The position numbers and the translations under genes were made by a program. The notes under the pieces are model-generated. The model was not told where the DNA came from. It made no database searches and worked only from the letters and a program-made list of their open reading frames with translations. DNA of 64,000 nucleotides from Candidatus Latescibacterota bacterium (GTDB lineage Bacteria; Latescibacterota; UBA2968; UBA8231). Within the stretch, counting starts at the first letter, position 1, and each line of letters opens with the position of its first letter. This document shows, one piece after another, positions 14,248 through 32,696 of the stretch. The DNA is taken from NCBI GenBank assembly GCA_965248265.1, contig CBDFJF010000001.1, positions 1,568,001 through 1,632,000 of the forward strand, given 5' to 3'.

Positions 14248-15629
14248 GCTATCGCTCTCCCTTGTTCGTCCATCTGCATGAGTGCATCGAGGACTGCCTT
14301 GCCCGTGTTCGGCGCCGTCACCGTCTTCTTCTTTGCCGGACGAGGCTTGTAGACGTGGTTTATGCCGTATCGCAACCCGTCGTAGGGGTGATCGTTCCCG
14401 CCCTTCAACACGTCCTCAGGATCGTGTGGGTCTCGCATCACAGTGCCCAAGCTCTCAAGCACATGTTCCGTCTTACCGCGGAAAAACTTGAGGCGGCCGG
14501 CGTAGAGCAGATCCTTGACGTTGCGAGCTCCGTTGACCCGCTCCATGTTGGCGCGAGTAAGGTGGATGCCCTGCTTGACGAAGCTGTCTACTGGAGCTGC
14601 CGCCTGGGTAGCCTCTCCTGGCTTGCGCTTCGTCCACATATCGTGAGGAGCCAGATGGAGCCGGCAACGGTCTTTGCGCAGACGGAAGTAGTTGTCGAGC
14701 ATCGCCAGGACACCGCGCGCATGATCGGCACCACCTGCATCTTCTCTGTAGTACTCGTCCACGACATAGACATTCCAGTCGGAGTCAACAGCGAGTAGCC
14801 CGCACCACGTCGCCATACTCTCGCCGTAATCCATGCAAGTGAAATGAGCCCAGCCCTCGGGAATCTCGAACGAGTCTTCCTCGACTTCAGAGCGCCGGAA
14901 CATGGAGAAGTAGGCCCCGACGATGGCATCCCAGTCACCCTCCAACCAGCCCTTGATCAGCTCAGGATCACCGACTCCCCTGAGCCTGTCGATGTAGCCG
15001 GGGTCCGCCTGGAGCCCTATGCGGTTATCCTTGACCTTGGAGGGGATGAACATGCGAGTGGTCTTGGTAGCGTCGTCTCTGATCAGGTGGTATCCGTATT
15101 TGTGGGTATTGATCTGGAAATACTCTTTGATCTCGGCGTGACAGCGACCACCAGGGTTACCAGTAGCGCGAATGCGCTTGTTGCGCGCAGGGCCTCTGAG
15201 GCGTGACTTCATGCGGTGGTAAGGCTTCATGGTCTCATGCAGAGGGAGTTCGTCCCAGCCAATCCAGGAATAGGAAAACCCCATGTACTTGGTGAAGTCA
15301 TTGATCGAGTCGAGGCTTCTGAGCCTGAGCACAGCCCCGTCAGGCCAACGCCAAGTCTTAGTGCCGACCTGATACTCAGCACCCATCTGAGGGAAGATTT
15401 GCAGCGCACACTCGATGATCTCTTCGAGCTCGGGGAACGACTGGCGGAACAGGATGCCAACCCAGTCTGAACCTTGATCGACGTCTGAAGCGAAGTCACC
15501 GAGAAGGAACTGCGTCTTGCCCCCGAAGACGGCGCCGCCGTAGAAGAGTTCGTCACAGAAGCTGGCCGTGGCACAGGCATCTGACTGAGGACCGGGCTGC
15601 GGACTCCAGCAGTAGCGGTCACTTTCCAT
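14244..15629 (-). CDS. terL: Terminase large subunit
   Basis: PQPGPQ, YGGAVFGGKT (Walker A), WIGWDE (Walker B), ATGNPGG, nuclease MDYG and DHPYDGLRY. Confidence 0.95.
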   Translation of the reverse strand: MESDRYCWSPQPGPQSDACATASFCDELFYGGAVFGGKTQFLLGDFASDVDQGSDWVGILFRQSFPELEEIIECALQIFPQMGAEYQVGTKTWRWPDGAVLRLRSLDSINDFTKYMGFSYSWIGWDELPLHETMKPYHRMKSRLRGPARNKRIRATGNPGGRCHAEIKEYFQINTHKYGYHLIRDDATKTTRMFIPSKVKDNRIGLQADPGYIDRLRGVGDPELIKGWLEGDWDAIVGAYFSMFRRSEVEEDSFEIPEGWAHFTCMDYGESMATWCGLLAVDSDWNVYVVDEYYREDAGGADHARGVLAMLDNYFRLRKDRCRLHLAPHDMWTKRKPGEATQAAAPVDSFVKQGIHLTRANMERVNGARNVKDLLYAGRLKFFRGKTEHVLESLGTVMRDPHDPEDVLKGGNDHPYDGLRYGINHVYKPRPAKKKTVTAPNTGKAVLDALMQMDEQGRAIA

Positions 15630-16221
15630 TGCTCCCGACTGCCGCCATCTCGCCGTAGACGTGACCCATCCGCTGCTCTATCCAGTCCTCGTAGGACTCA
15701 GGCCGCGGCGGGCTATCAACCTGCCGATGCTCAATGCTTCCCGATATCTCCACCTTCTGCCGATCCACGAACATGTTCAGATGCTTCGCGAGACTATCCA
15801 GTGCTGATATCTTGCTGTGGAGCTTGAAACGTGTCTTCTTCACCAATGGCGCATTCTCGCCGGCGCCGTCCACATACTCCTCTTGCACTATCTCTGAGAT
15901 TGCTCGAGTGGCCCCTTCCGACATTGCACTCCAGTCGAAATACACCATCCCGTTGTCTTCGAGGCGCAGGTAGTTGCTGATGTCGGCGAAAGCGATGGCG
16001 GCATACTCCTCAAGCACGCGATCGACGGTGATCTGGGTGCGTTCGGAGACCACGGCCCTGGCTTCGGCGATCGCAGCCGCTATTACTGGTTTGTGGAGGT
16101 TCTCCGTCCCGATTTTATGTGCCGTCCTCGGACTGTATCCGGCCCGCTTCGCCGCCTGGGTCGCGTTCAAATCGACGAGGTACTCCTCGACGAAACGCTG
16201 CTGTTTGGGGGTGAGCTTCAT
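15619..16221 (-). CDS. terS: Terminase small subunit
   Basis: LTPKQQRFVEEYLVDLNATQAAKRAGYS and KLHSKISALDSLAKHL motifs. Confidence 0.95.
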   Translation of the reverse strand: MKLTPKQQRFVEEYLVDLNATQAAKRAGYSPRTAHKIGTENLHKPVIAAAIAEARAVVSERTQITVDRVLEEYAAIAFADISNYLRLEDNGMVYFDWSAMSEGATRAISEIVQEEYVDGAGENAPLVKKTRFKLHSKISALDSLAKHLNMFVDRQKVEISGSIEHRQVDSPPRPESYEDWIEQRMGHVYGEMAAVGSNGK

Positions 16222-16225
16222 GGTT

Positions 16226-16300
16226 TGGTAGCAGGGACGGGATTCGAACCCGCGACCTTCTGGTTATGAGCCAGACGAGATACCGTTTCTCTACCCTGCA
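16226..16300 (-). tRNA. tRNA-Met (CAT), initiator-like, CCA encoded
   Basis: Reverse complement TGCAGGGTAGAGAAACGGTATCTCGTCTGGCTCATAACCAGAAGGTCGCGGGTTCGAATCCCGTCCCTGCTACCA folds as a cloverleaf; unpaired 1:72 (U:U), A11:U24, TTCGAAT T-loop. Confidence 0.95.
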
Positions 16301-24173: not shown

Positions 24174-24380
24174 ATGAAGAACTGGAGACGCGTCACGGCA
24201 AACAGCCTGCCGAAGTCTGGACGAGTAGTGCTCGCCTATCGCGCAGGACAGTACTTCCTGGCTTCAGTGCAGCGCAACGCCAAGGAGCAACTGAAGTGGT
24301 ACCCAGGCGGGTACGATCTCAAGAAGTTCGATTTCTGGATGCCACTACCACCAGAGCCAACGAAAGGAGCAAAGGAATGA
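24174..24380 (+). CDS. DUF551-like phage protein
   Basis: W...LP...VL...WMPLPPEP pattern. Confidence 0.7.
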   Translation: MKNWRRVTANSLPKSGRVVLAYRAGQYFLASVQRNAKEQLKWYPGGYDLKKFDFWMPLPPEPTKGAKE

Positions 24381-24922
24381 CTGCGCTACTGCAACTACCG
24401 ATCACCGAGGAACAGGAAGACGAGCTGTACTCCGAAGCTTTCGGAGACGCACTTTTTCACGGCGAAGGCGACGAGCTGCCGGAGCTGCCAACGTTCGAAG
24501 ATGAGGAGCAGGCGCAGCGATACCTGCGAGCCTACGCGCACTACCGGGAACAGTTCGACCAGGTGTCCGCACTCTTCGACGCCGAGATCGAGCGGATTGC
24601 AGCCCGACAGCAGAAGGAGCTGTCGAAGATCGAATGCCGGGTGGACTTCCTCTCGGCCTCGCTCAAGCGCTTCTACGAGGCGTCAGGAGCCAAGAGGGTT
24701 GTGCTGCCCCACGGCACTCTCTCCCAGCGCAAGCAGCCAGAGCGAGTCGTCATCGAGGACGAGACGACGTTCCTGGAGACGGCGCCGGCTGAGCTGATAA
24801 AGACGATGGCCGCCCCCGACAAAACGGCAATCAAGGAGCACATCAAAACCACCGGAGAGATTCCAACCGGTGTCGACCTGGTGCGCAACGATCCCAAGTT
24901 CACAATCACGCTGGCCGAATGA
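24377..24922 (+). CDS. Mu Gam-like / Gp157-like host-nuclease inhibitor
   Basis: Coiled coil, LPHGTLSQRK and PDKTAIK..GEIPTGV motifs. Confidence 0.75.
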   Translation: MTALLQLPITEEQEDELYSEAFGDALFHGEGDELPELPTFEDEEQAQRYLRAYAHYREQFDQVSALFDAEIERIAARQQKELSKIECRVDFLSASLKRFYEASGAKRVVLPHGTLSQRKQPERVVIEDETTFLETAPAELIKTMAAPDKTAIKEHIKTTGEIPTGVDLVRNDPKFTITLAE

Positions 24923-25203
24923 GAAGAGCAACCCGCAGAGAGAAGATCCGGATGTCGAAGATCGTTGACGACGGCTGCATCGTGTGTCGACGTGAGTTCG
25001 AGATCTACACCCCGGCGGGTGTGCACCATTGCACCCGTAGGCAGAAGCGGTCCCATGCGCGCACCATCGCGCTCTGCGACCGGCACCATCAGCACGGCGG
25101 AGAAGGCGTGGCGATTCACCCGTACTGGAAGCTGTTCGAAGAGAAGTTTGGGACAGAGGAGGAGTTGCTCGAGGCGACGAACCAGATGGTGGACTCACTA
25201 TAA
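24919..25203 (+). CDS. Ref-family HNH nuclease
   Basis: GCIVC, HH, TIALCDRHH, AIH and FEEKFGTEEELL motifs. Confidence 0.8.
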   Translation: MRRATRREKIRMSKIVDDGCIVCRREFEIYTPAGVHHCTRRQKRSHARTIALCDRHHQHGGEGVAIHPYWKLFEEKFGTEEELLEATNQMVDSL

Positions 25204-25248
25204 GAACCATTAAAACGCATTTACGCTGACGTAAACGAAGGAGGAGAA

Positions 25249-26175
25249 ATGGTACGAGAGTGCAAGACCCAAGAAGAACTCAGCGCGGCAATCGCGGAAA
25301 AGAAAAAGCACCCCGATATCGAAATCTGGCTTGTGGGCAATGCCCGATTTGAACTGGGCGGCTCCTCCCAGGTGAGAGCCTACGGCTCCTCCCAGGTGAC
25401 AGCCTACGGCTCCTCCCAGGTGACAGCCTACGACTCCTCCCAGGTGACAGCCTACGGCTCCTCCCAGGTGACAGCCTACGGCTCCTCCCAGGTGACAGCC
25501 TGCGGCTCCTCCCAGGTGACAGCCTGCGGCTCCTCCCAGGTGACAGCCTACGGCTCCTCCCAGGTGACAGCCTACGGCTCCTCCCAGGTGACAGCCTACG
25601 ACTCCTCCCAGGTGACAGCCTACGGCTCCTCCCAGGTGACAGCCTACGGCTCCTCCCAGGTGACAGCCTACGACTCCTCCCAGGTGACAGCCACTGATTG
25701 GGTCGGCGTCACCGTGCACCCCGGAGCCAAGGTCGAAGGCGGGAAGCAGATCGAGATACCGCGGCTGGATACACCGGCTCTATGGTGTGAGTTTTACGGG
25801 ATTCCTGTCGATGACGGGGTTGCAGTGATGTACAAAGCCGTCAACGACGATTTCGACAGCCCCTACGGGATGTCATACAAGCCTGGAACCGTCCCTGTGG
25901 CTCCGGATTGGGACGAAGGCAAAGCGGAATGTGGTGGCGGTATTCATGTGTCGCCGCGGCCCTTCATGGCGCTCGCATTCCACGGTGAGGCTACAAAGTT
26001 CGTCGGCTGCCCTGTGAAGCTGGAAGAGGTGGCGGTTCATCCCGATGGGCATTACCCGGAAAAGGTGAAAGCCAAGGGATGCTGCGCACCGGTGTTTGAA
26101 GTAGACATCGACGGGGAGCCGTTGCTGGGCATTCCCGATAACGGCAAAGCGTTGACTCACTACAACGCCGGTTAA
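25249..26175 (+). CDS. Phage protein with 14 octapeptide repeats (beta-solenoid-like) and C-terminal ECGGGIH domain
   Basis: (G/D)SSQVTA(Y/C) x14; strong GGAGG SD. Confidence 0.8.
   Translation: MVRECKTQEELSAAIAEKKKHPDIEIWLVGNARFELGGSSQVRAYGSSQVTAYGSSQVTAYDSSQVTAYGSSQVTAYGSSQVTACGSSQVTACGSSQVTAYGSSQVTAYGSSQVTAYDSSQVTAYGSSQVTAYGSSQVTAYDSSQVTATDWVGVTVHPGAKVEGGKQIEIPRLDTPALWCEFYGIPVDDGVAVMYKAVNDDFDSPYGMSYKPGTVPVAPDWDEGKAECGGGIHVSPRPFMALAFHGEATKFVGCPVKLEEVAVHPDGHYPEKVKAKGCCAPVFEVDIDGEPLLGIPDNGKALTHYNAG
25360..25695 (+). repeat. 14 x 24-bp coding tandem repeat GRCTCCTCCCAGGTGACAGCCTRC
   Basis: Counted directly in the DNA. Confidence 0.95.
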
Positions 26176-26181
26176 AATGAA

Positions 26182-26472
26182 TCAGCCGTGTGTTCCGCCA
26201 AGAAGCCCGTACAACCAGACTAAGACTCCTAATGCGAGCATGGCTGCCGGCCAGAGCAGGTTCGATCTCTCGCTTGCGAGCTCTCGGAATGTGGCATTCG
26301 TAAAGAAGAGGAAGCCGCTTATCGCGATCACAAATCCAGGGATGACGAAAAGAGACATGGCCCAGATGCTAAGGAGCAGCTCTCCAATCCCAACTGGCTC
26401 GTATCTCAAGAAATGACCTACACCGAGTACGAGAAGGACCGAGGCGATGCATGCAATCGCTGCAAGTTTCAT
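26182..26472 (-). CDS. Small 3-TM membrane protein, inverted relative to the early operon
   Basis: Hydrophobic 96-aa ORF between sites S2 and S3. Confidence 0.65.
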   Translation of the reverse strand: MKLAAIACIASVLLVLGVGHFLRYEPVGIGELLLSIWAMSLFVIPGFVIAISGFLFFTNATFRELASERSNLLWPAAMLALGVLVWLYGLLGGTHG

Positions 26473-26555
26473 GGATTACCTTAGCGCAGAGCTTAGATCG
26501 ATTGTGGATTGGACACCATAGACCAACGATAATGCCATTTAAAGGGAGTCAACGG

Positions 26556-26813
26556 ATGTACCTCGAAAGCACGGAAATCAGCGGAGAATTGTCGGTTGAG
26601 GAGTACCGCAACCAGATGGTGACAGCGCTTGAGCGTGATGTGCGGAGCATTGCCTACGCCATCACGGAAATACGCGACCTGTTCAAGTGCCCCGAATGCG
26701 ACGGCGCCGGAGGAGCGCGTATCACAGAAGAGCCGTCTGAGGACAACGACTTCGAGGGCTGGAGGTTCAAGGGTTGCGCCCGCTGTGACCGCAAGGGGAT
26801 TGTCCGCCCATGA
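26556..26813 (+). CDS. Hypothetical protein with CxxCxGxG zinc motifs
   Basis: CPECDGAG...CARCDRKG; SD supplied by site S3. Confidence 0.6.
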   Translation: MYLESTEISGELSVEEYRNQMVTALERDVRSIAYAITEIRDLFKCPECDGAGGARITEEPSEDNDFEGWRFKGCARCDRKGIVRP

Positions 26814-27277
26814 ACCGACAGAATGTGACCTGTGGCCCGCTTTACCGGCGTGTCCGCGAACTCTTCACCGGTGACGCCCCCGAACTCAATCGCGCCTTCG
26901 CGCAGGGATTCACGGCCGGCGAGGCTGAGAAAGTCTATCTCGGCGCCTGCAAGGCTGCCATGTTCCGCCCGACATCGTCGATTGGCCGCGAGCTGCTACG
27001 CTCCTGGGTATCAGACATTTGCGGCGTGTACGGGCTTTGCTGGACCACACTGGAGTATGTGGACCCGAGTCGTGATGGCGAGGCGGTATACGAGTTGTGG
27101 ATCTGTCGGGACAACGATGCCGTCGATGCCGTCGAGTCAACAACCGCCATCGAAGTCAACAGTCTCTCCTGGCATCACTGGCGGGGGCTGCTGACAGGTG
27201 TGGCTGATGGCGAAATCGACCTCCACTTCCACGAGCGCCAGAGCGCTGGAGACATCGACGGAACATTGGCGGACTAA
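26810..27277 (+). CDS. Hypothetical phage protein
   Basis: ATGA-coupled; stop lies inside site S4. Confidence 0.6.
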   Translation: MNRQNVTCGPLYRRVRELFTGDAPELNRAFAQGFTAGEAEKVYLGACKAAMFRPTSSIGRELLRSWVSDICGVYGLCWTTLEYVDPSRDGEAVYELWICRDNDAVDAVESTTAIEVNSLSWHHWRGLLTGVADGEIDLHFHERQSAGDIDGTLAD

Positions 27278-27306
27278 CGATAAGAAACCTACTGAGGAGT
27301 CAACGG

Positions 27307-27693
27307 ATGGGCGACGAATGGGAGAGAGCGAAGCCAACCGGGTGCCCTTTTCTGCGGTATCTCGACGCATACCCGATAGGCAACTGGGTTTCAAGGGGTG
27401 AGCCTCCATGCAGACAGAAGATTTGCGGGAAGGATAGTTGCTACCAGTACGGGCGCTCCTACAGAGACCGAGAGCGACTTCTGGTTCTCCCAGTTGGGAC
27501 GCTGATGTTCAAGCTCTCTCCAGAGCTGGGTGACGGACAAAGCAGCTCGATTGTGAAGAACATCGATCACGCCATCGAGGCGGTACGTGCGTGGATGGAG
27601 GACAGGAAGCACGGCGATGACATCGGCGAAGAATGCCAAATCGAGTGCGTGGAGATGACGGAAGCCGAGATTGCGGCTCTGCCTGAGCTATGA
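27307..27693 (+). CDS. Hypothetical phage protein
   Basis: SD supplied by site S4. Confidence 0.55.
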
Positions 27694-27971
27694 GAATCCG
27701 CCCGCTCTTTGCCTGGTACGACATCTGGATCGGAGCGTTCTGGGACAGGTCCAACCAGCGGCTCTACCTGTTCCCGTTGCCCATGATTGGGCTGAGGATT
27801 GATTTCAGAGGGGAGTCAACGATCATGGAGGACAACTGGGAAACGACGTGCCCAAACCGCGATGACGGTCAGCACTGCAACTGCTGGTATGATGGCGAGC
27901 CGTGCTGTGCCTGTGGCGATGACTGCGAAGAAGACAGGCAAGACGAAAATTGCTTTGCGGACGCACGATAA
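27690..27971 (+). CDS. Hypothetical protein, apparent fusion of two mini-genes
   Basis: Hydrophobic [13 protein letters not shown] part plus Cys-rich part, joined over a GGGAGTCAACG half-site; stop lies inside site S5. Confidence 0.55.
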
Positions 27972-28005
27972 TTCCGATTACTGGGAGTCAATCGAACGAG
28001 AGGAC

Positions 28006-28212
28006 ATGAAATCTTGCTACCTCCATTTCAGGGGGACGGCACAGCCCCCACTTGAGATCAGCGCGACGGACGCTGCCACGATCATCAGATGCAACTATGC
28101 CTCGGTGGAAGCCGTTGAGCTGATGGAGGAGCGGCTTCGCGAAGGCAAGCGAGTGTATGTCGAGAGCGGGCACATCCGCCTGCATAGCTTCACACTCATT
28201 CACAGCAATTGA
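28006..28212 (+). CDS. Hypothetical protein, paralog of 31168..31356
   Basis: LHFRG...ATDAATIIRCNYAS...MEERLREGKRVYV. Confidence 0.65.
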   Translation: MKSCYLHFRGTAQPPLEISATDAATIIRCNYASVEAVELMEERLREGKRVYVESGHIRLHSFTLIHSN

Positions 28213-28221
28213 GGAGATCCT

Positions 28222-28419
28222 ATGAGCGGGAATAGCAAGGAGCGGCGCAGGCTCAATCGCCTGACGAACGGGCTTCTTCCGAGACTCAATGAGTTGGAGG
28301 AGGAGGTGGAGTATCTACGGGAGGACACAGCGTATCTCGAAAGGGGTATTCACCAGTTCTCAGCTGGGGGTTGGTCTGTATTTTGGCGATGGCTCTGGAG
28401 TGGCTTCTCCTGGAAGTGA
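28222..28419 (+). CDS. Hypothetical coiled-coil protein
   Basis: GAGGAG SD. Confidence 0.55.
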   Translation: MSGNSKERRRLNRLTNGLLPRLNELEEEVEYLREDTAYLERGIHQFSAGGWSVFWRWLWSGFSWK

Positions 28420-29201
28420 GCTGCGCGAGTTGTGGCGATCGAGGTTTCGTGTATGTCCAGGCTGATGAGCGAGTGGGACAAGGCCACGGCCAATTGGAGA
28501 TCTGCCGGTGTGTTCGTCCTTTGTGCCGTTGCGGAGACCAGTCTCCCTACCTCTACTGGGATGAGGAGTCCGTGCGCCGCGACTGCCCCTGTAGAGCGCC
28601 TCGGCACCGGATACAGGTAGTGAACCACCTGGTCAAGATCTCGGGAGTGCCCGACCGCTATCGCTGGAAGTTCCGCACGGACTTCCTCGACGCCGAGCAG
28701 CCAGGACTGGCCGGCAAGATCCGGGCCTCGATCGCGAAGCTTGTGGACTCCCAGGAGCCGCCGAAGCAGGGCCTGTTCCTGCATGGCACACCAGGCACCG
28801 GCAAGACGCTGTTGGCCAGCATCGTGCTCAATGAGCTGATGTACTGGAGGATGAAGCGGGGTCGGTTCGTGAACCTGGCTCGATCGCTGTTTCCTCGACT
28901 TCGGCAGACAATGTCAGAGGGGTCTCAGGAGAGCGGGAAGCTCTTCCAGATCCAGGAGCGGTTGGCCACAGTCCCCTACCTGGTGATCGACGATCTGGGG
29001 GTGCAGCGCGGGACCGAGTGGGAGGAGGAGATCCTGTACGACCTGGTCGATGCGCGGTATGCGGAGCAGCAATTCACGGTAGTTACGACGAACACGCCTC
29101 TCGATGAGATCGAAGGGATCTCGCGAGGGCGGATCTACTCACGGCTCAAGGAGATGTGCCGATGGTTGAAATTGGAAGGGACGGACTGGAGATGCGAATA
29201 G
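28416..29201 (+). CDS. DnaC/IstB-like ATPase (helicase loader)
   Basis: GTPGTGKT, LVIDDLG, VTTN and RIYSRLKEM motifs; Cys-rich N-terminus. Confidence 0.85.
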   Translation: MSCASCGDRGFVYVQADERVGQGHGQLEICRCVRPLCRCGDQSPYLYWDEESVRRDCPCRAPRHRIQVVNHLVKISGVPDRYRWKFRTDFLDAEQPGLAGKIRASIAKLVDSQEPPKQGLFLHGTPGTGKTLLASIVLNELMYWRMKRGRFVNLARSLFPRLRQTMSEGSQESGKLFQIQERLATVPYLVIDDLGVQRGTEWEEEILYDLVDARYAEQQFTVVTTNTPLDEIEGISRGRIYSRLKEMCRWLKLEGTDWRCE

Positions 29202-29434
29202 CAGAACCGTCCGATCGGGGCCGTGTGGTAGCGGTCGTAATCCCCCGCTACCTCGAAGCATGGGCACTTTTGAATCCGTTGTCGAGCATGAAGACATGGA
29301 CGATAACATGCGGTAGGTGTTCCCACTCTTGGCGAGAAAAAGTCCCGCTTGTCAGGGTCTGTTCGGCTGTGTGCCCGTGCTGCAGGACGCAGAACCGATG
29401 GGAACTTATCCTTGAGGAAGACTCGGAGGCTTGA
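29192..29434 (+). CDS. Small zinc-ribbon protein
   Basis: CGRC...CPCC. Confidence 0.5.
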   Translation: MRIAEPSDRGRVVAVVIPRYLEAWALLNPLSSMKTWTITCGRCSHSWREKVPLVRVCSAVCPCCRTQNRWELILEEDSEA

Positions 29435-30267
29435 TCTCTTGCTGAGTGAGTCCTTCGAAGTACTCTGCACTGTTATCAGACTCGTCTACTATCATCACGT
29501 TCACCTCGGCCCTATCTGGCGAGACGATCAGGTAAGCCTGTCCGTGAGTTACTGGATCTGCCGCCCCGGTCTGTTTGGTACAGACACACTCCTGAGCGCG
29601 CCTCTTATTGCTGAGTGGGGCCAGGATGCGGTAGCAAACTGCTGGCGTCGGCCATGTGGGGAAAAGATTCCAAGCTGCAAATTCATCCGCGTGCAGATTC
29701 GCAGACAGACTCGCCCAAGTCCCAAAAGGTTCGGGGTGATTAGTGTCGCTGTCCAAGAAACCATCCACATATTTCATGAAAAAACGGTGTCTGCGCGCGG
29801 CTTCAGCATCAACTTTCTCGCTAAGCTCCTTCTGGGATCTCCGCTTTGCGCGAAGGTCTACCATCGTTCCCGCGACATTTTCATGGACGTCTTCTGCGCG
29901 CCTGGCTTTGTCCAACCACCCCTGTGCTTGGTCAAGAAGATCTGCACTGATGAGTGTCTTCGCCAGGTTAGACATTGCCAGCGTATTTCCAGCGTTGGCC
30001 GCCTTTTCGTAGTGCCCTATGGCGAGAGATTCCAGTCCGATCTTGTCGCAGCAGACACCCAAATTATTGATCGCCAGGTCGTAGTCGGGCCGAAAACTCA
30101 AACATTTCGTGTAGTGAAGCCGGCTGACCTCCGATTGGCCCGCGCGATAATAGGCAAAGGCTGAGGCAAAGCGAATGTCTACATCGTTCGGTGTAATCTC
30201 TAGGATCTTCTCAAGAATAAGCGCCAGAGCGCCGGAGATCTGGACGGTAACCTTGAAACCGTTGAGT
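29406..30267 (-). pseudogene. 5'-truncated TPR/Sel1-repeat protein gene, inverted
   Basis: TPR-like frame (LEKILEITPNDVDIRFASAFAY..., AINNLGVC, AMSNLA) continues upstream of 30101 with no start codon until a stop at ~30268. Confidence 0.6.
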
Positions 30268-30307
30268 CACTGTAATGCCTCAAAACGATAGTCAAAAGGT
30301 GCCAACC

Positions 30308-30550
30308 ATGGATAAAAAAAAGATGCCGTATCAGGCCCTCGTCTTTCCTGAGTTTGGGGACGGAGAATTTGCAATCCAAACAGGGCGGCGACTCGGGATG
30401 GTCAAATCGGATTACACCGACGACTGGTATATCTCATGGTCGCCTCGCAATTCAAATAACAACGCCGAGGGGGTGTGGTCAGAGTGGGTTGAGTTGGCGA
30501 ATGCAATCATTGCTGAGGATGAACGCCGCAAGGCGGATACTACCAAATAA
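30308..30550 (+). CDS. Hypothetical protein between sites S6 and S7
   Basis: Stop TAA is the end of the S7 left arm. Confidence 0.6.
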   Translation: MDKKKMPYQALVFPEFGDGEFAIQTGRRLGMVKSDYTDDWYISWSPRNSNNNAEGVWSEWVELANAIIAEDERRKADTTK

Positions 30551-30572
30551 TGCCTCTTATCGGGAGTAAGAA

Positions 30573-30725
30573 ATGTATTTCAGTTTAGAGTTTATTCAGT
30601 GCGACGGCTGCGGAGAAAGAGTAGAGGAAATGGGGGAATTGAAGTTCGGAGAAGTGCCGGATGATTGGCTCAAGGTAAGCGAACGAGAACATCACTGCCC
30701 CGAGTGTAAAACAGAGACTGACTAA
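30573..30725 (+). CDS. 50-aa zinc-ribbon protein between sites S7 and S8
   Basis: Manually read MYFSLEFIQCDGCG...HHCPECKTETD; SD from S7, stop in S8. Confidence 0.6.
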   Translation: MYFSLEFIQCDGCGERVEEMGELKFGEVPDDWLKVSEREHHCPECKTETD

Positions 30726-30754
30726 CGATAATCCTCGTACTACGGAGTAGATGA

Positions 30755-31171
30755 ATGAGTGAACTGCCCTACGCTGAGGACGTGAACTACTGGAAGACAG
30801 GATCGTCGTCCCCGGACTCATGGATCGCGAAGGCGATAAAGCAGATCGAGGACGTGGGCGGCGAGATCACGGCAGAGGGCTTTGGTCGCGCGGCTGGACA
30901 CTCGGCCTACATGCTGGGCTTTGTGTTCGACCAGGAGGCGTTCAAGATCACCTGGCCTGTACTGGAGTCGCACAAGGGCGAGGAAATGGCCGCGCGCCGG
31001 CAGGCGGCGACGTTTCTCTATCACGACGTGAAGGCACGGTGCATGGTGGTGAAGATCAAAACGCCGAGGGTGGCGTTTTTCGAGTACCTGCAGCTGCCAG
31101 ACGGCCGGTCCGCTGGGCAGCTGGCAAACCCCGAGCTGTTGGCCAATGTGCCGAAGATGCTGACAACATGA
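30755..31171 (+). CDS. Conserved-looking hypothetical phage protein
   Basis: SD supplied by S8; RRQAA..LYHDVKAR and AFFEYL.LPDGR patterns. Confidence 0.65.
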   Translation: MSELPYAEDVNYWKTGSSSPDSWIAKAIKQIEDVGGEITAEGFGRAAGHSAYMLGFVFDQEAFKITWPVLESHKGEEMAARRQAATFLYHDVKARCMVVKIKTPRVAFFEYLQLPDGRSAGQLANPELLANVPKMLTT

Positions 31172-31356
31172 ACTACATCCTCCACTTCAAGGGGCCACCG
31201 CAGCCGGCAGAGCAGGTCAACGCCACTGACGCGGCCAAGATCATCCGCAGCAACTTCGCCTCCAGGGAGGAGATCAAGGTGATGGAGGAGCGACTACAGG
31301 CAGGAAAACGAGTCTACGTCCGCAACGGGTATTTGCGGCGTGGGGATCTGAACTGA
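31168..31356 (+). CDS. Hypothetical protein, paralog of 28006..28212
   Basis: LHFKG...ATDAAKIIRSNFAS...MEERLQAGKRVYV. Confidence 0.65.
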   Translation: MNYILHFKGPPQPAEQVNATDAAKIIRSNFASREEIKVMEERLQAGKRVYVRNGYLRRGDLN

Positions 31357-31368
31357 AAGGAGGAGCAC

Positions 31369-31539
31369 ATGCCCAAGTATCACACCACAAAGCAAGTTGC
31401 CGACATGCTCGAGGTGACCGATCGGTACGTTCGGAAGATGGTGATCGAGAAGAAGCTGACTGCGTTCAGGCTCGGCCACCGGGTGCGCATACCTACCGAA
31501 GCAGTTGAGAAATTCATGCGAGAGCGCAAGATCGCATGA
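31369..31539 (+). CDS. xis: Excisionase (HTH_17/MerR-like)
   Basis: Manually read MPKYHTTKQVADMLEVTDRYVRKMV...AFRLGHRVRIP; AGGAGG SD; overlaps the integrase start. Confidence 0.85.
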   Translation: MPKYHTTKQVADMLEVTDRYVRKMVIEKKLTAFRLGHRVRIPTEAVEKFMRERKIA

Positions 31540-32696
31540 AAGGGAGCATAACCCGGCGCCAACTCAAGGGCGGCCTGCAGTACTACATCGTCTACGACGC
31601 TGGCCGGAAGTGGTCGTCGAAAAAGCAGAAAACCGTTCGTAATCAGCAATGGGAGCGTGTCGAGCCAAACACTCGGACGGCTGCACAGAAGCTGCTCAAC
31701 ATCCGCCTGGCGGAAGTCCAACGGGGCGAATGGCAGGGTAAGCAGAGCATCGGTTTCACCGAGCTCACCCAGTCATGGATGGAGAAGGACGCACGGCCGC
31801 GACTCAAGCCACAATCGCTGGACCGCTACCAACAATTCCTCCGGCTGCACATCCTGCCCGTCCTCGGCCAGTACCAGGCGCACGAGATTGACCTTGAGAT
31901 TCTACAGGGGTTTACTGCGGTGTTGCTACAGGAGCTCTCGGTGTCTCACGTCAAATCAATCGTGGCTGTCACGAGAGCCATCCTGCGCAAGGGGTACGAA
32001 TGGGGATACGTCAAAGCCAACCCGGCTGACATGCGCATTTCCTACCCGCGTCACACGCCGAAGAAGATCGATCCGCTGACTCCCGAGGAAATCCACGCTC
32101 TGCTGGCCCAAGCGTCCCAGAAGTGGTGTGCAGTCCTCGTAGTGGCGATCTGGACCGGTTTGCGCGTGGGCGAGATCCAGGCCATGAAGTGGAACAATCT
32201 TGATTGGAAGGCTTCGGAGTACTATGTGGAGGAGAACCTGACTCGACGGCGGGGGTTCGGAGATCCCAAGACGCCGTCAGCAGCCTCCTCGGTGCTTCTG
32301 TCGCCCTTCGTCATCGATACCCTGCGACAGCACAAACAGCGTCAGGCAGCGCTCAAACTGGCTCAGGGAAGTGATTACAAGGACGCAGGATTTATCTTCA
32401 CAACCGATCAGGGCGGGCCCTATGGCTACAATCAGATCACCAAATGGGGCCTGGAACGCACGCTCGAAGACGCCGGTCTGCGCCGCATCACATTCCACCA
32501 GCTACGCCACACCTGTGCCTCGCTGCTGATCTCCAAAGGAGCCAACATCAAGTCAGTGCAGAGGCAGCTGCGGCACGCCACCATCAAGCAGACGCTCGAT
32601 ACCTACGCCCATCTGTACCCGGACGATCACGCCGAAGCGGTACGGGCAATGGACAGCTATGTATGGGGGAAGGCCGCTCAGCTAACAAATATCTAA
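31536..32696 (+). CDS. int: Tyrosine recombinase, prophage integrase
   Basis: TGLRVGEI, PKT, FHQLRHT and RH...TLDTYAH catalytic motifs; N-terminal arm-binding-type domain. Confidence 0.95.
   Translation: MKGSITRRQLKGGLQYYIVYDAGRKWSSKKQKTVRNQQWERVEPNTRTAAQKLLNIRLAEVQRGEWQGKQSIGFTELTQSWMEKDARPRLKPQSLDRYQQFLRLHILPVLGQYQAHEIDLEILQGFTAVLLQELSVSHVKSIVAVTRAILRKGYEWGYVKANPADMRISYPRHTPKKIDPLTPEEIHALLAQASQKWCAVLVVAIWTGLRVGEIQAMKWNNLDWKASEYYVEENLTRRRGFGDPKTPSAASSVLLSPFVIDTLRQHKQRQAALKLAQGSDYKDAGFIFTTDQGGPYGYNQITKWGLERTLEDAGLRRITFHQLRHTCASLLISKGANIKSVQRQLRHATIKQTLDTYAHLYPDDHAEAVRAMDSYVWGKAAQLTNI

Follow-up and report, generated by a model that had tools for sequence, protein, structure and literature searches.

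Small accessory-gene modules on Acinetobacter plasmids are flanked by multiple 28-bp copies of the host dif site, called pdif, in which two 11-nt arms enclose a central hexamer (11-6-11), and the host Xer recombinases are presumed to be the agent. In the accessible text of the reports on these dif modules, the mechanism rests largely on inference from sequence contexts (PMC6449649; PMC13141974, PMC12907356). Here we describe an array of eight dif-like sites (S1 to S8) in a prophage of an uncultured Gemmatimonadota/"Latescibacterota" bacterium, which is represented by a metagenome-assembled genome (MAG). The whole stretch of DNA analysed, 64,000 nt in length, is called the window; it is G000:C1:1568001-1632000, where G000 denotes the source genome, 7.32 Mb in two contigs (C1 and C2). 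We estimate at about 0.75 the probability that the sites are functional dif mimics recognised by the host recombinase. Like the pdif modules, the array contains a module that appears in different contexts, here a 404-bp cassette that three arrays share and that has a fourth context in the sample. However, the sites in the window are all direct repeats, whereas the published Acinetobacter modules are flanked by inverted repeats, as far as the accessible part of PMC6449649 describes them. Our arrays reside in prophages and chromosomal islands and not on plasmids, and the host belongs to another phylum. Furthermore, the host dif is symmetric and has one adjacent recombinase, instead of XerC plus XerD; the hexamers belong to shared, ordered classes; and the sites also hold a stop codon and a ribosome-binding site.

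A first-pass annotation, made from the sequence alone, had reported eight 28-nt sites in the same orientation. Their coordinates, their + strand orientation and their letters all match the window sequence. The fixed 11-6-11 geometry that it claimed is present in 8/8 sites, and 8/8 are located at gene boundaries, as it had stated. S1 (25193..25220, +; spacer GAACCA) provides from its left arm the TAA stop codon of a Ref-like nuclease gene. The right arm of S2 (26155..26182, +; spacer CGCCGG) contains the stop codon of a 308-aa gene, and a minus-strand 96-aa gene ends just past this site. S3 (26522..26549, +; spacer TGCCAT) carries the Shine-Dalgarno sequence of the next gene in its right arm and forms the right end of the shared 404-bp cassette. 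The left arms of S4 (27273..27300, +; spacer GAAACC) and S8 (30721..30748, +; spacer TCCTCG) are identical to the host dif arm; that of S4 contains the stop codon of a 155-aa gene, and the spacer of S8 is one letter off the CCCTCG class that ends other arrays. The hexamer of S5 (27961..27988, +; spacer TTCCGA) is also found in three other arrays of the genome. The spacer TGCCTC is common to S6 (30265..30292, +), a weak dif-like site whose left arm contains the stop codon of a relic 3' gene end, and S7 (30540..30567, +), which is a half site. Not every gene junction has a site: at least eight others in the 25.2-31.6 kb range are without one, and thus a 'cassette', that is, the interval between two sites, holds 1-4 genes. 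An extra left half-site (10.4 bits) is located at window 26131-26141, 24 nt upstream of S2 and inside the 308-aa gene. It has the same letters as the left arm in front of the CGCCGG hexamer in a second prophage of the genome, and it may be a recombination scar or a product of chance.

The sites were scored with two models. The first is a 34-nt position weight matrix (PWM) derived from the eight sites and applied leave-one-out. With this matrix, 7/8 sites scored 18.2-29.0 bits (S6, 18.2; S1, 18.5) and S7 scored 2.5 bits, while the next best position on the + strand of the window reached 6.4 bits. The second is an independent dif model, an 11-nt half-site built from 94 arms of the dif sites of 47 relatives, with no input from G000. 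Under this model, the eight sites took ranks 1-7 and 9 among the 63,973 window positions, and all of them were inside the top 245 of 7.3 million genome positions. At the rate of the top 245, about 0.2 positions are expected per 5.6 kb, and eight were observed. The first-pass annotation had seen no full copy elsewhere in the window, and neither model found one. Strong left arms (14-21.7 bits) are those of S3, S4, S8 and S1, with S1 at 14.2 bits and with S4 and S8 at the maximum of 21.7 bits; S3 has the top full-site score, 21.4 bits. The match to the dif model is weaker for S2, S5 and S6. S6 (-5.2 bits) and S7 are marginal, and in S7 it is the right arm that scores well (14.2 bits) and the left arm that is poor. 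The right arm of S1 is weak (-14.3 bits). Because the ranking was obtained with a model from other genomes, the predicted dif-type nature of the eight sites is well supported, together with an asymmetry between a strong and a weak arm. The earlier claim that these sites are of dif type was borne out not only by this independent model, but also by the finding of a host dif and by the left arms of S4 and S8. The pattern GATAA-N6-TTATC occurs 22 times in the genome and 0-4 times at every other spacing from 0 to 15. The two arms of a site are complementary at 4-7/11 positions, and six or more were reached by about 4% of 20,000 random 28-mers from the window.

A scan of the whole genome with the PWM, proposed in the first-pass annotation, gave 76 distinct loci above 14 bits. 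The matches are of three kinds: further arrays, about 40 ends of repeated elements, and one perfect palindrome, taken as the host dif. This palindrome, ACTAACGATAA CAAGAA TTATCGTTAGT, has the 11-6-11 geometry and is located at G000:C2:3484647-3484674. It is the only position in the genome at which both arms have the maximum dif-model score. The palindrome lies 257 bp upstream of the gene for a 345-aa tyrosine recombinase and adjoins mutL; the module (G000:C2:3483356-3484674) stands between leuS and mutL. The maximum of the cumulative GC skew of C2, at 3,486,365, is 1.7 kb from the palindrome, and the GC-skew minimum of C1, at 2,962,341, coincides with dnaA (C1:2,962,995). When C1 and C2 are taken as one circle, the replication arms are 3.70 and 3.62 Mb. 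We predict that the palindrome is the host's own chromosomal dif, at the replication terminus.

The module is conserved among relatives. The recombinase is single-copy and 60-73% identical in 18/24 family genomes, and it was not found at E <= 1e-20 in 16 sister-family genomes. The gene order leuS-xer-dif-mutL is kept in five genera. We collected 54 loci around relatives of the recombinase, which come from Candidatus Latescibacterota or Gemmatimonadaceae/Gemmatimonadetes MAGs. The best palindrome match (<=5 mismatches of 22) is located 65-874 bp upstream of the recombinase gene in 47/54 loci, and the two dif arms co-vary among the relatives: ACCAACGATAA is found with TTATCGTTGGT, and ACTCCCGATAA with TTATCGGGAGT. 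The distance of the xer-dif module from dnaA is 47-50% of the chromosome in 4/4 genomes for which it could be computed (G000, G002, G008 and G018); in the three single-contig relatives it is 50.4%, 46.7% and 47.6%. As a separate observation, two relatives have an extra full dif-like site away from xer. It is perfect in G008 (locus L011, G008:C1:4492316), 44 kb from dnaA, and near-perfect in G021 (locus L014, G021:C4:2146859), beside a cas2 gene and an apparent CRISPR array.

Adjacency of the recombinase gene and its site is a possible hallmark of single-recombinase Xer systems, according to the accessible part of PMC5357621. Like XerS/difSL of streptococci and XerH/difH of Helicobacter and Campylobacter, as presented in that part, the host module consists of an adjacent recombinase gene of about 350 aa and a site at the terminus (PMC5357621). 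Unlike them, its recombinase stays under the XerS, XerC, XerD and XerA cut-offs, its dif has a 6-bp centre with perfectly symmetric arms, and the genome has an extra XerD-like gene. The NCBIfam scores, with cut-offs in brackets, are 69.5 bits (267) for XerS, 100.7 (220) for XerA, 119.5 (335) for XerC and 114.6 (330) for XerD. The nearest solved structure is that of XerD (46 bits). A host dif with two identical arms points to a single-recombinase system, and the recombinase adjacent to dif probably serves it alone. The first-pass annotation had remarked that the sites of the window have no canonical XerD arm, and the two identical arms of the host dif explain this. A literature search on Xer/dif in Gemmatimonadota brought no description of such a module, and none of the papers that it listed used the name of this phylum; the xer-dif module of this bacterial family appears to be previously undescribed.

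The window does not hold the only array. Arrays with sites in the same orientation were found at four further places in the genome, in prophage and non-phage surroundings, together with one single site (C1:366436), and the sites in every array are direct repeats. One array (C1:27438-30031) belongs to the second prophage, which has a large terminase gene. A five-site array (C1:675820-677932, the C1:675 kb array) is located between ECF-sigma/TPR and Kelch genes, and a three-site array (C1:786782-787566, the C1:787 kb array) is beside a GTPase gene; the neighbours of both are non-phage genes. A four-site array in minus orientation is at C2:3430638-3431515 (the C2:3430 kb array). The strict phage-type pattern has 15 occurrences in G000. 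Each of 75 other family genomes has 0-4, and there the matches resemble the local dif.

These further arrays bear on which recombinase may act on the sites. The first-pass annotation had named host Xer and the phage integrase as candidates. The integrase (31536-32696), together with its excisionase, might use the sites as secondary attachment sites: its gene is 0.8 kb downstream of S8 and its catalytic domain is complete (PF00589, 75.7 bits). However, the same site classes occur at the four other places without a relative of this integrase, and its sole blastp match is a different, multi-copy recombinase with 22% identity. The genome has 15 PF00589 genes, and only one is in or within 30 kb of these other places, 8 kb from the C1:675 kb array; this makes it unlikely that the window integrase is the common agent. 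Furthermore, the integrase's own attachment site would be expected in the 200 bp that follow its gene, and no copy of the motif is present there. Host Xer is therefore the better of the two candidates, since equivalent arrays exist elsewhere without relatives of the integrase, and use of the sites by the integrase seems to us very improbable. Four closely similar tyrosine recombinases of 280-312 aa are also encoded in the genome (C1:685703-686638, C1:703266-704105, C2:3033502-3034371 and C2:3930250-3931098), and this four-copy recombinase is presumably part of another mobile element; one of its copies is located 8 kb from the C1:675 kb array.

The central hexamers are not random among the arrays. 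We compared 21 sites, from which copies homologous by flank had been excluded, and found identical hexamers in 10 of the 210 pairs: TTCCGA is present at four sites, CCCTCG at three and TGCCTC at two. Column shuffles gave a mean of 0.5 identical pairs, and 0/20,000 reached 10. The arms of same-hexamer pairs differ by 1-7 letters. Inside each array the hexamers are all distinct, save that S6 equals S7, and the order TTCCGA, then ..C(C/T)TC, then CCCTCG is found in four arrays, with TCCTCG as the last hexamer in the window. Genes between same-class sites of different arrays are unrelated (blastp, E <= 1e-5).

The 404-bp cassette and a 4-kb block are the only segments shared between arrays. The block, window 26164-30225 (4,062 bp), is 100% identical to G000:C1:28234-32295 in the second prophage. 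This identity suggests that DNA passed very recently between two co-resident prophages that have otherwise no relation. It begins exactly at the border that separates the left arm of S2 from its hexamer, and homology with two other arrays, as well as with one more context in the sample, has its left end at this same border. The C1:675 kb array contains a copy of the S2-S3 interval (404 bp) that is 98.5-99.3% identical and is surrounded by unrelated flanking DNA. In the three arrays, the cassette has CGCCGG at the left and TGCCAT at the right, and both homology ends are at site cores. At the left end, each of the three arrays has a left arm of its own, while they agree in the hexamer and the right arm. 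At the right end, they agree in the left arm and the hexamer, while the C1:675 kb copy has a different right arm from the two prophage copies. In addition, one site of the C1:675 kb array, that with the hexamer CCCTCG, shares its upstream flank with the single site at C1:366 kb and its downstream flank with a site of the C1:787 kb array.

Contigs assembled from four runs of one sample provided the sample evidence; rare excision products are not visible in such contigs. The contigs break at 26164, 26540 and 30225. Two of the loose ends are absent from G000. One, at 26164, is a fourth left context; the other is a new right context that follows 27289, where a variant contig departs at the border between the spacer and the right arm of S4. 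Other loose ends, at 27490, 28132, 29022 and 30251, are off-site.

We propose a mechanism in which the host recombinase would bind the strong left arm and, cooperatively, the weak right arm of a site. Strand exchange would occur at the hexamer borders, chiefly between sites with the same hexamer. A match of hexamers would decide which sites pair, and unlike hexamers within an array would protect it from self-deletion. A segment between two different hexamers could then be replaced by double exchange with a co-resident prophage or island that carries the same pair. The sites would double as translation punctuation, with, in most cases, a stop codon in the left arm and often the ribosome-binding site of the next gene in the right arm, and a transferred segment might for this reason be expressed wherever it lands. 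That the sites mediate cassette exchange by host Xer has, in our estimation, about even odds; binding, strand exchange and the role of the hexamer are what we infer from the sequences and their contexts. The whole scheme, in which hexamers serve as addresses, the single Xer of the host acts on dif mimics and each site brings a stop codon and a ribosome-binding site, is possible but still tentative.

The array had also been called integron-like in the first-pass annotation. Like integron cassettes, the cassettes of the array consist of small, mostly promoterless genes, and they are bordered by same-orientation imperfect palindromes that resemble the sites of tyrosine recombinases. The attC sites of integrons are longer than the 28-bp sites described here. 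No integron integrase, attI or cassette promoter (Pc) was found beside any array, and the only PF00589 gene beside the window array is the phage integrase. The conserved order of the site classes argues against insertion at one end and fits exchange at fixed linkers better. Thus, the comparison holds for the direct orientation and the small promoterless genes, but it fails for a dedicated integrase and attI and for the order of hexamers, which is conserved here. A gene resembling an integron integrase or XerA is present at C1:1754213-1755118 (239.6 bits with the integron integrase subfamily model, cut-off 265), and no dif-like array adjoins it.

The stop codons and ribosome-binding sites may also be read in another way, namely that the motif is a conserved intergenic linker for expression or regulation, without site-specific exchange. 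It would hold a stop codon together with a ribosome-binding site, and a dimeric DNA-binding protein might use it as an operator. An Xer-like protein may then act only as a binder, and the mosaic joints would be formed by homologous or microhomology recombination at the shared stretch. An in-frame TAA of the upstream reading frame lies within the left arm at 6/8 sites (S1, S4, S5, S6, S7 and S8), and GGAG is located in the right arm or just after it, 6-9 nt ahead of the next start codon, at S3, S4, S7 and S8. The C2:3430 kb array follows this grammar too. A linker without exchange is also consistent with one block end that is a plain microhomology joint and with the assembled sample contigs, in which no recombination product was found. 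However, such a linker leaves unexplained why the arm is identical to that of the host dif and why the 11-6-11 geometry is common to the palindrome at the terminus. The sites are oriented independently of the genes. In the C1:675 kb array, where most genes run on the opposite strand, the orientation of the sites and the GGAGT right arm are retained, which suggests that the right arm is more than a ribosome-binding site. The hexamers are identical where the arms differ, and this is not required of an expression signal. The S2 left arm has only 2 joint-adjacent letters in common with its partners, too little for homologous exchange.

Two further results speak against a linker for expression. A sigma-70-type promoter, raised as an alternative in the first-pass annotation, had no match at the sites (0/8); the scan (-35/-10 with 16-18 nt spacing), made with an E. 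coli-type consensus, gave one off-site match in the region versus 2.4 expected. RNA folds of the eight sites revealed no common hairpin, with z-scores of -2.4 to +0.6 and structures that differ from site to site. We regard a linker of this kind, acting without exchange, as unlikely, although it is an explanation to be taken seriously.

The motif matches outside the arrays raise yet another explanation. About 40 strong matches are element ends, mostly on C2 (e.g., G000:C2:2800225-2800252, 2775533-2775560 and 2768306-2768333), and the sites of the arrays could be surrogate ends for rolling-circle transposons of the IS91 family of insertion sequences (IS). An HUH transposase would nick one site, terminate at the next and move the DNA between them. 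In several of the element ends, the copies resemble each other exactly up to the motif's right edge and no further, and this edge is 160-290 bp downstream of Y2-transposase genes. The ends carry the dif left arm (often 11/11 letters), a 6-nt spacer and TTAT, and G000 gave 36 tblastn matches for Y2_Tnp/Zn_Tnp_IS91 transposase genes. According to the accessible text of PMC13181058, the origin ends of the IS91 family are imperfect subterminal palindromes and mobilise adjacent DNA. However, the terminal 8-10 letters, which make up the cut region, differ between the IS ends and the phage-type sites, and the phage-type sites have a second inverted arm as in dif, for which an origin end has no need. 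None of the arrays has a transposase gene in it or beside it. Moreover, one-ended transposition takes the IS along, but no IS copy was found in the arrays. Transposition of this type is improbable as the origin of the arrays.

Returning to the reading that the sites are dif mimics used by the host recombinase, several points weigh against it. The right arms of S1-S6 and S8 match dif poorly (-14 to +3 bits). The genome has a second Xer, the XerD-like gene at C2:769736-770650 (267.6 bits, cut-off 329.6), and this makes it uncertain which recombinase serves dif. Because the sites contain stop codons and Shine-Dalgarno sequences, selection for expression could maintain much of the motif, and the motif also ends IS91-family elements. 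Joints located at sites are also expected if the motif is merely the sole sequence common to unrelated elements. Only 7/14 homology ends are at sites, which make up 4% of the array. On its right, the 4,062-bp block ends off-site, at a microhomology joint 40 nt upstream of S6; here, 6-7 nt of microhomology link a minus-strand TPR gene, which is truncated, with the relic 3' end of a gene homologous to the 155-aa gene. No clean site-to-site recombination or excision product was found in the assembled contigs of the one sample. A contig joint from 26183 to 26526 was considered as such a product and rejected, because it has 20 letters on the shorter side and the S2 and S3 positions are not equivalent. 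The first-pass annotation had proposed that the phage gains, loses or reorders small genes as cassettes. This is supported by the presence of the 404-bp cassette in three arrays with its ends at site cores, by the further contexts in the sample and by the shared hexamer classes, but not by the half of the homology ends that are off-site.

The distribution of the arrays has to be weighed on the same side. Comparable arrays were not found in 75 other family genomes, among IMG/VR pattern matches, or in 11 related viral contigs. The exact-pattern scan of IMG/VR gave 23 contigs with one match each, mostly AT-rich and with no second site, which we take as chance matches. A relative of the phage AAA_24 protein is encoded on eleven IMG/VR contigs, and none of these contains an array. 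The 155-aa cassette protein had no relative in a scan of metagenomes, and a DNA search with the whole array against the 75 family genomes matched only the DnaC-like gene. As no related array was found outside this genome, all evidence for mobility comes from one genome and one sample.

The element that carries the array is a real prophage, and the array is placed between its recombination genes and xis-int. Just upstream of the array (24296..25203, +) are a Gam-like gene and the RecA-dependent-nuclease-like (Ref-like) gene that ends in S1. The S1-S2 cassette is the gene for the 308-aa repeat protein (25249..26175, +), which belongs to phrog_15773 of PHROGs, a family of unknown function. A 24-bp tandem repeat with at least 14 copies (window 25286-25764) encodes 8-residue repeats in this protein. 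The 96-aa membrane-like gene (26182..26472, -) is the only content of the S2-S3 cassette, the one present in three arrays. The S5-S6 interval contains a DnaC/IstB-like helicase-loader gene (28416..29201, +), whose product has a cysteine-rich N-terminal part and is about 50% identical to that of a single-copy host gene. The host counterpart is found once in 38/41 related genomes, and in G000 it sits 62 kb from dif; an earlier scan of a genome collection with the DnaC-like protein had given no match. The minus-strand TPR gene is cut to 231 aa in the window (29406-30275), and a 560-aa copy is present in the other prophage (C1:31476-33158). Two paralogous genes of 62-68 aa and unknown function, at 28006-28212 (after S5) and 31168-31356 (after S8), have 70% DNA identity over 142 bp. 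When compared with Pfam and PHROGs, nearly all of the cassette proteins are without family.

Downstream of S8, an excisionase (HTH_17) gene is followed by that of the phage tyrosine integrase (31369..32696, +, for both). Other genes of the prophage encode a cI-like repressor and an AAA_24 ATPase. In the left part of the window (15619..16300, -) are a small terminase subunit gene (15619-16221) and a tRNA-Met gene (16226-16300), and their positions indicate that the prophage extends over this part too. The tRNA-Met gene sits between the terminase genes and the early region, inside the prophage and away from its end. A comparison of the integrase-distal flank with the rest of the window, made for attachment sites, gave no repeat longer than 12 nt and no copy of the tRNA 3' end.

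Mobile elements that have dif-like sites and exploit host Xer are known as integrative mobile elements exploiting Xer (IMEX), and CTX-phi and TLC-phi are examples in the accessible part of PMC5357621. The IMEX described there have one or two sites, are located at dif and have no integrase, whereas the prophage has xis/int and eight sites in its early region. Its distance from the origin is about 1.4 Mb, and dif is far away, on the other contig. The papers listed in a literature search on dif-like or Xer cassettes in prophages dealt with IMEX, filamentous or small non-tailed phages and Acinetobacter, and none of them reported a multi-site array in a tailed prophage. Short conserved motifs in the same orientation are also known at gene boundaries in the early or accessory regions of other phages, where they coincide with mosaic joints, such as the promoter-stem-loop cassettes of T4, the linkers of lambdoid phages and the stoperators of mycobacteriophages. 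These motifs are phage-specific promoters, terminators or repressor sites. In contrast, the sites described here reproduce the core of the host dif and are not confined to phages.

Modules flanked by dif sites have so far been known mainly from Acinetobacter plasmids, and their mechanism is still debated. If the array works as we propose, this would suggest that gene shuffling by means of the universal dimer-resolution machinery is a general strategy, which reaches tailed prophages and islands of a distant uncultured phylum. The sites would then be a molecular candidate for the 'linker' sequences proposed behind modular phage mosaicism, and a testable rule would follow, namely that exchange occurs only between sites with the same hexamer. 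If hexamers do act as addresses, bacteria would have in these arrays their own version of recombinase-mediated cassette exchange with heterospecific sites, and a market for genes that resembles an integron but does without a dedicated integrase. The definition of the xer-dif module for this bacterial family stands independently of the phage.

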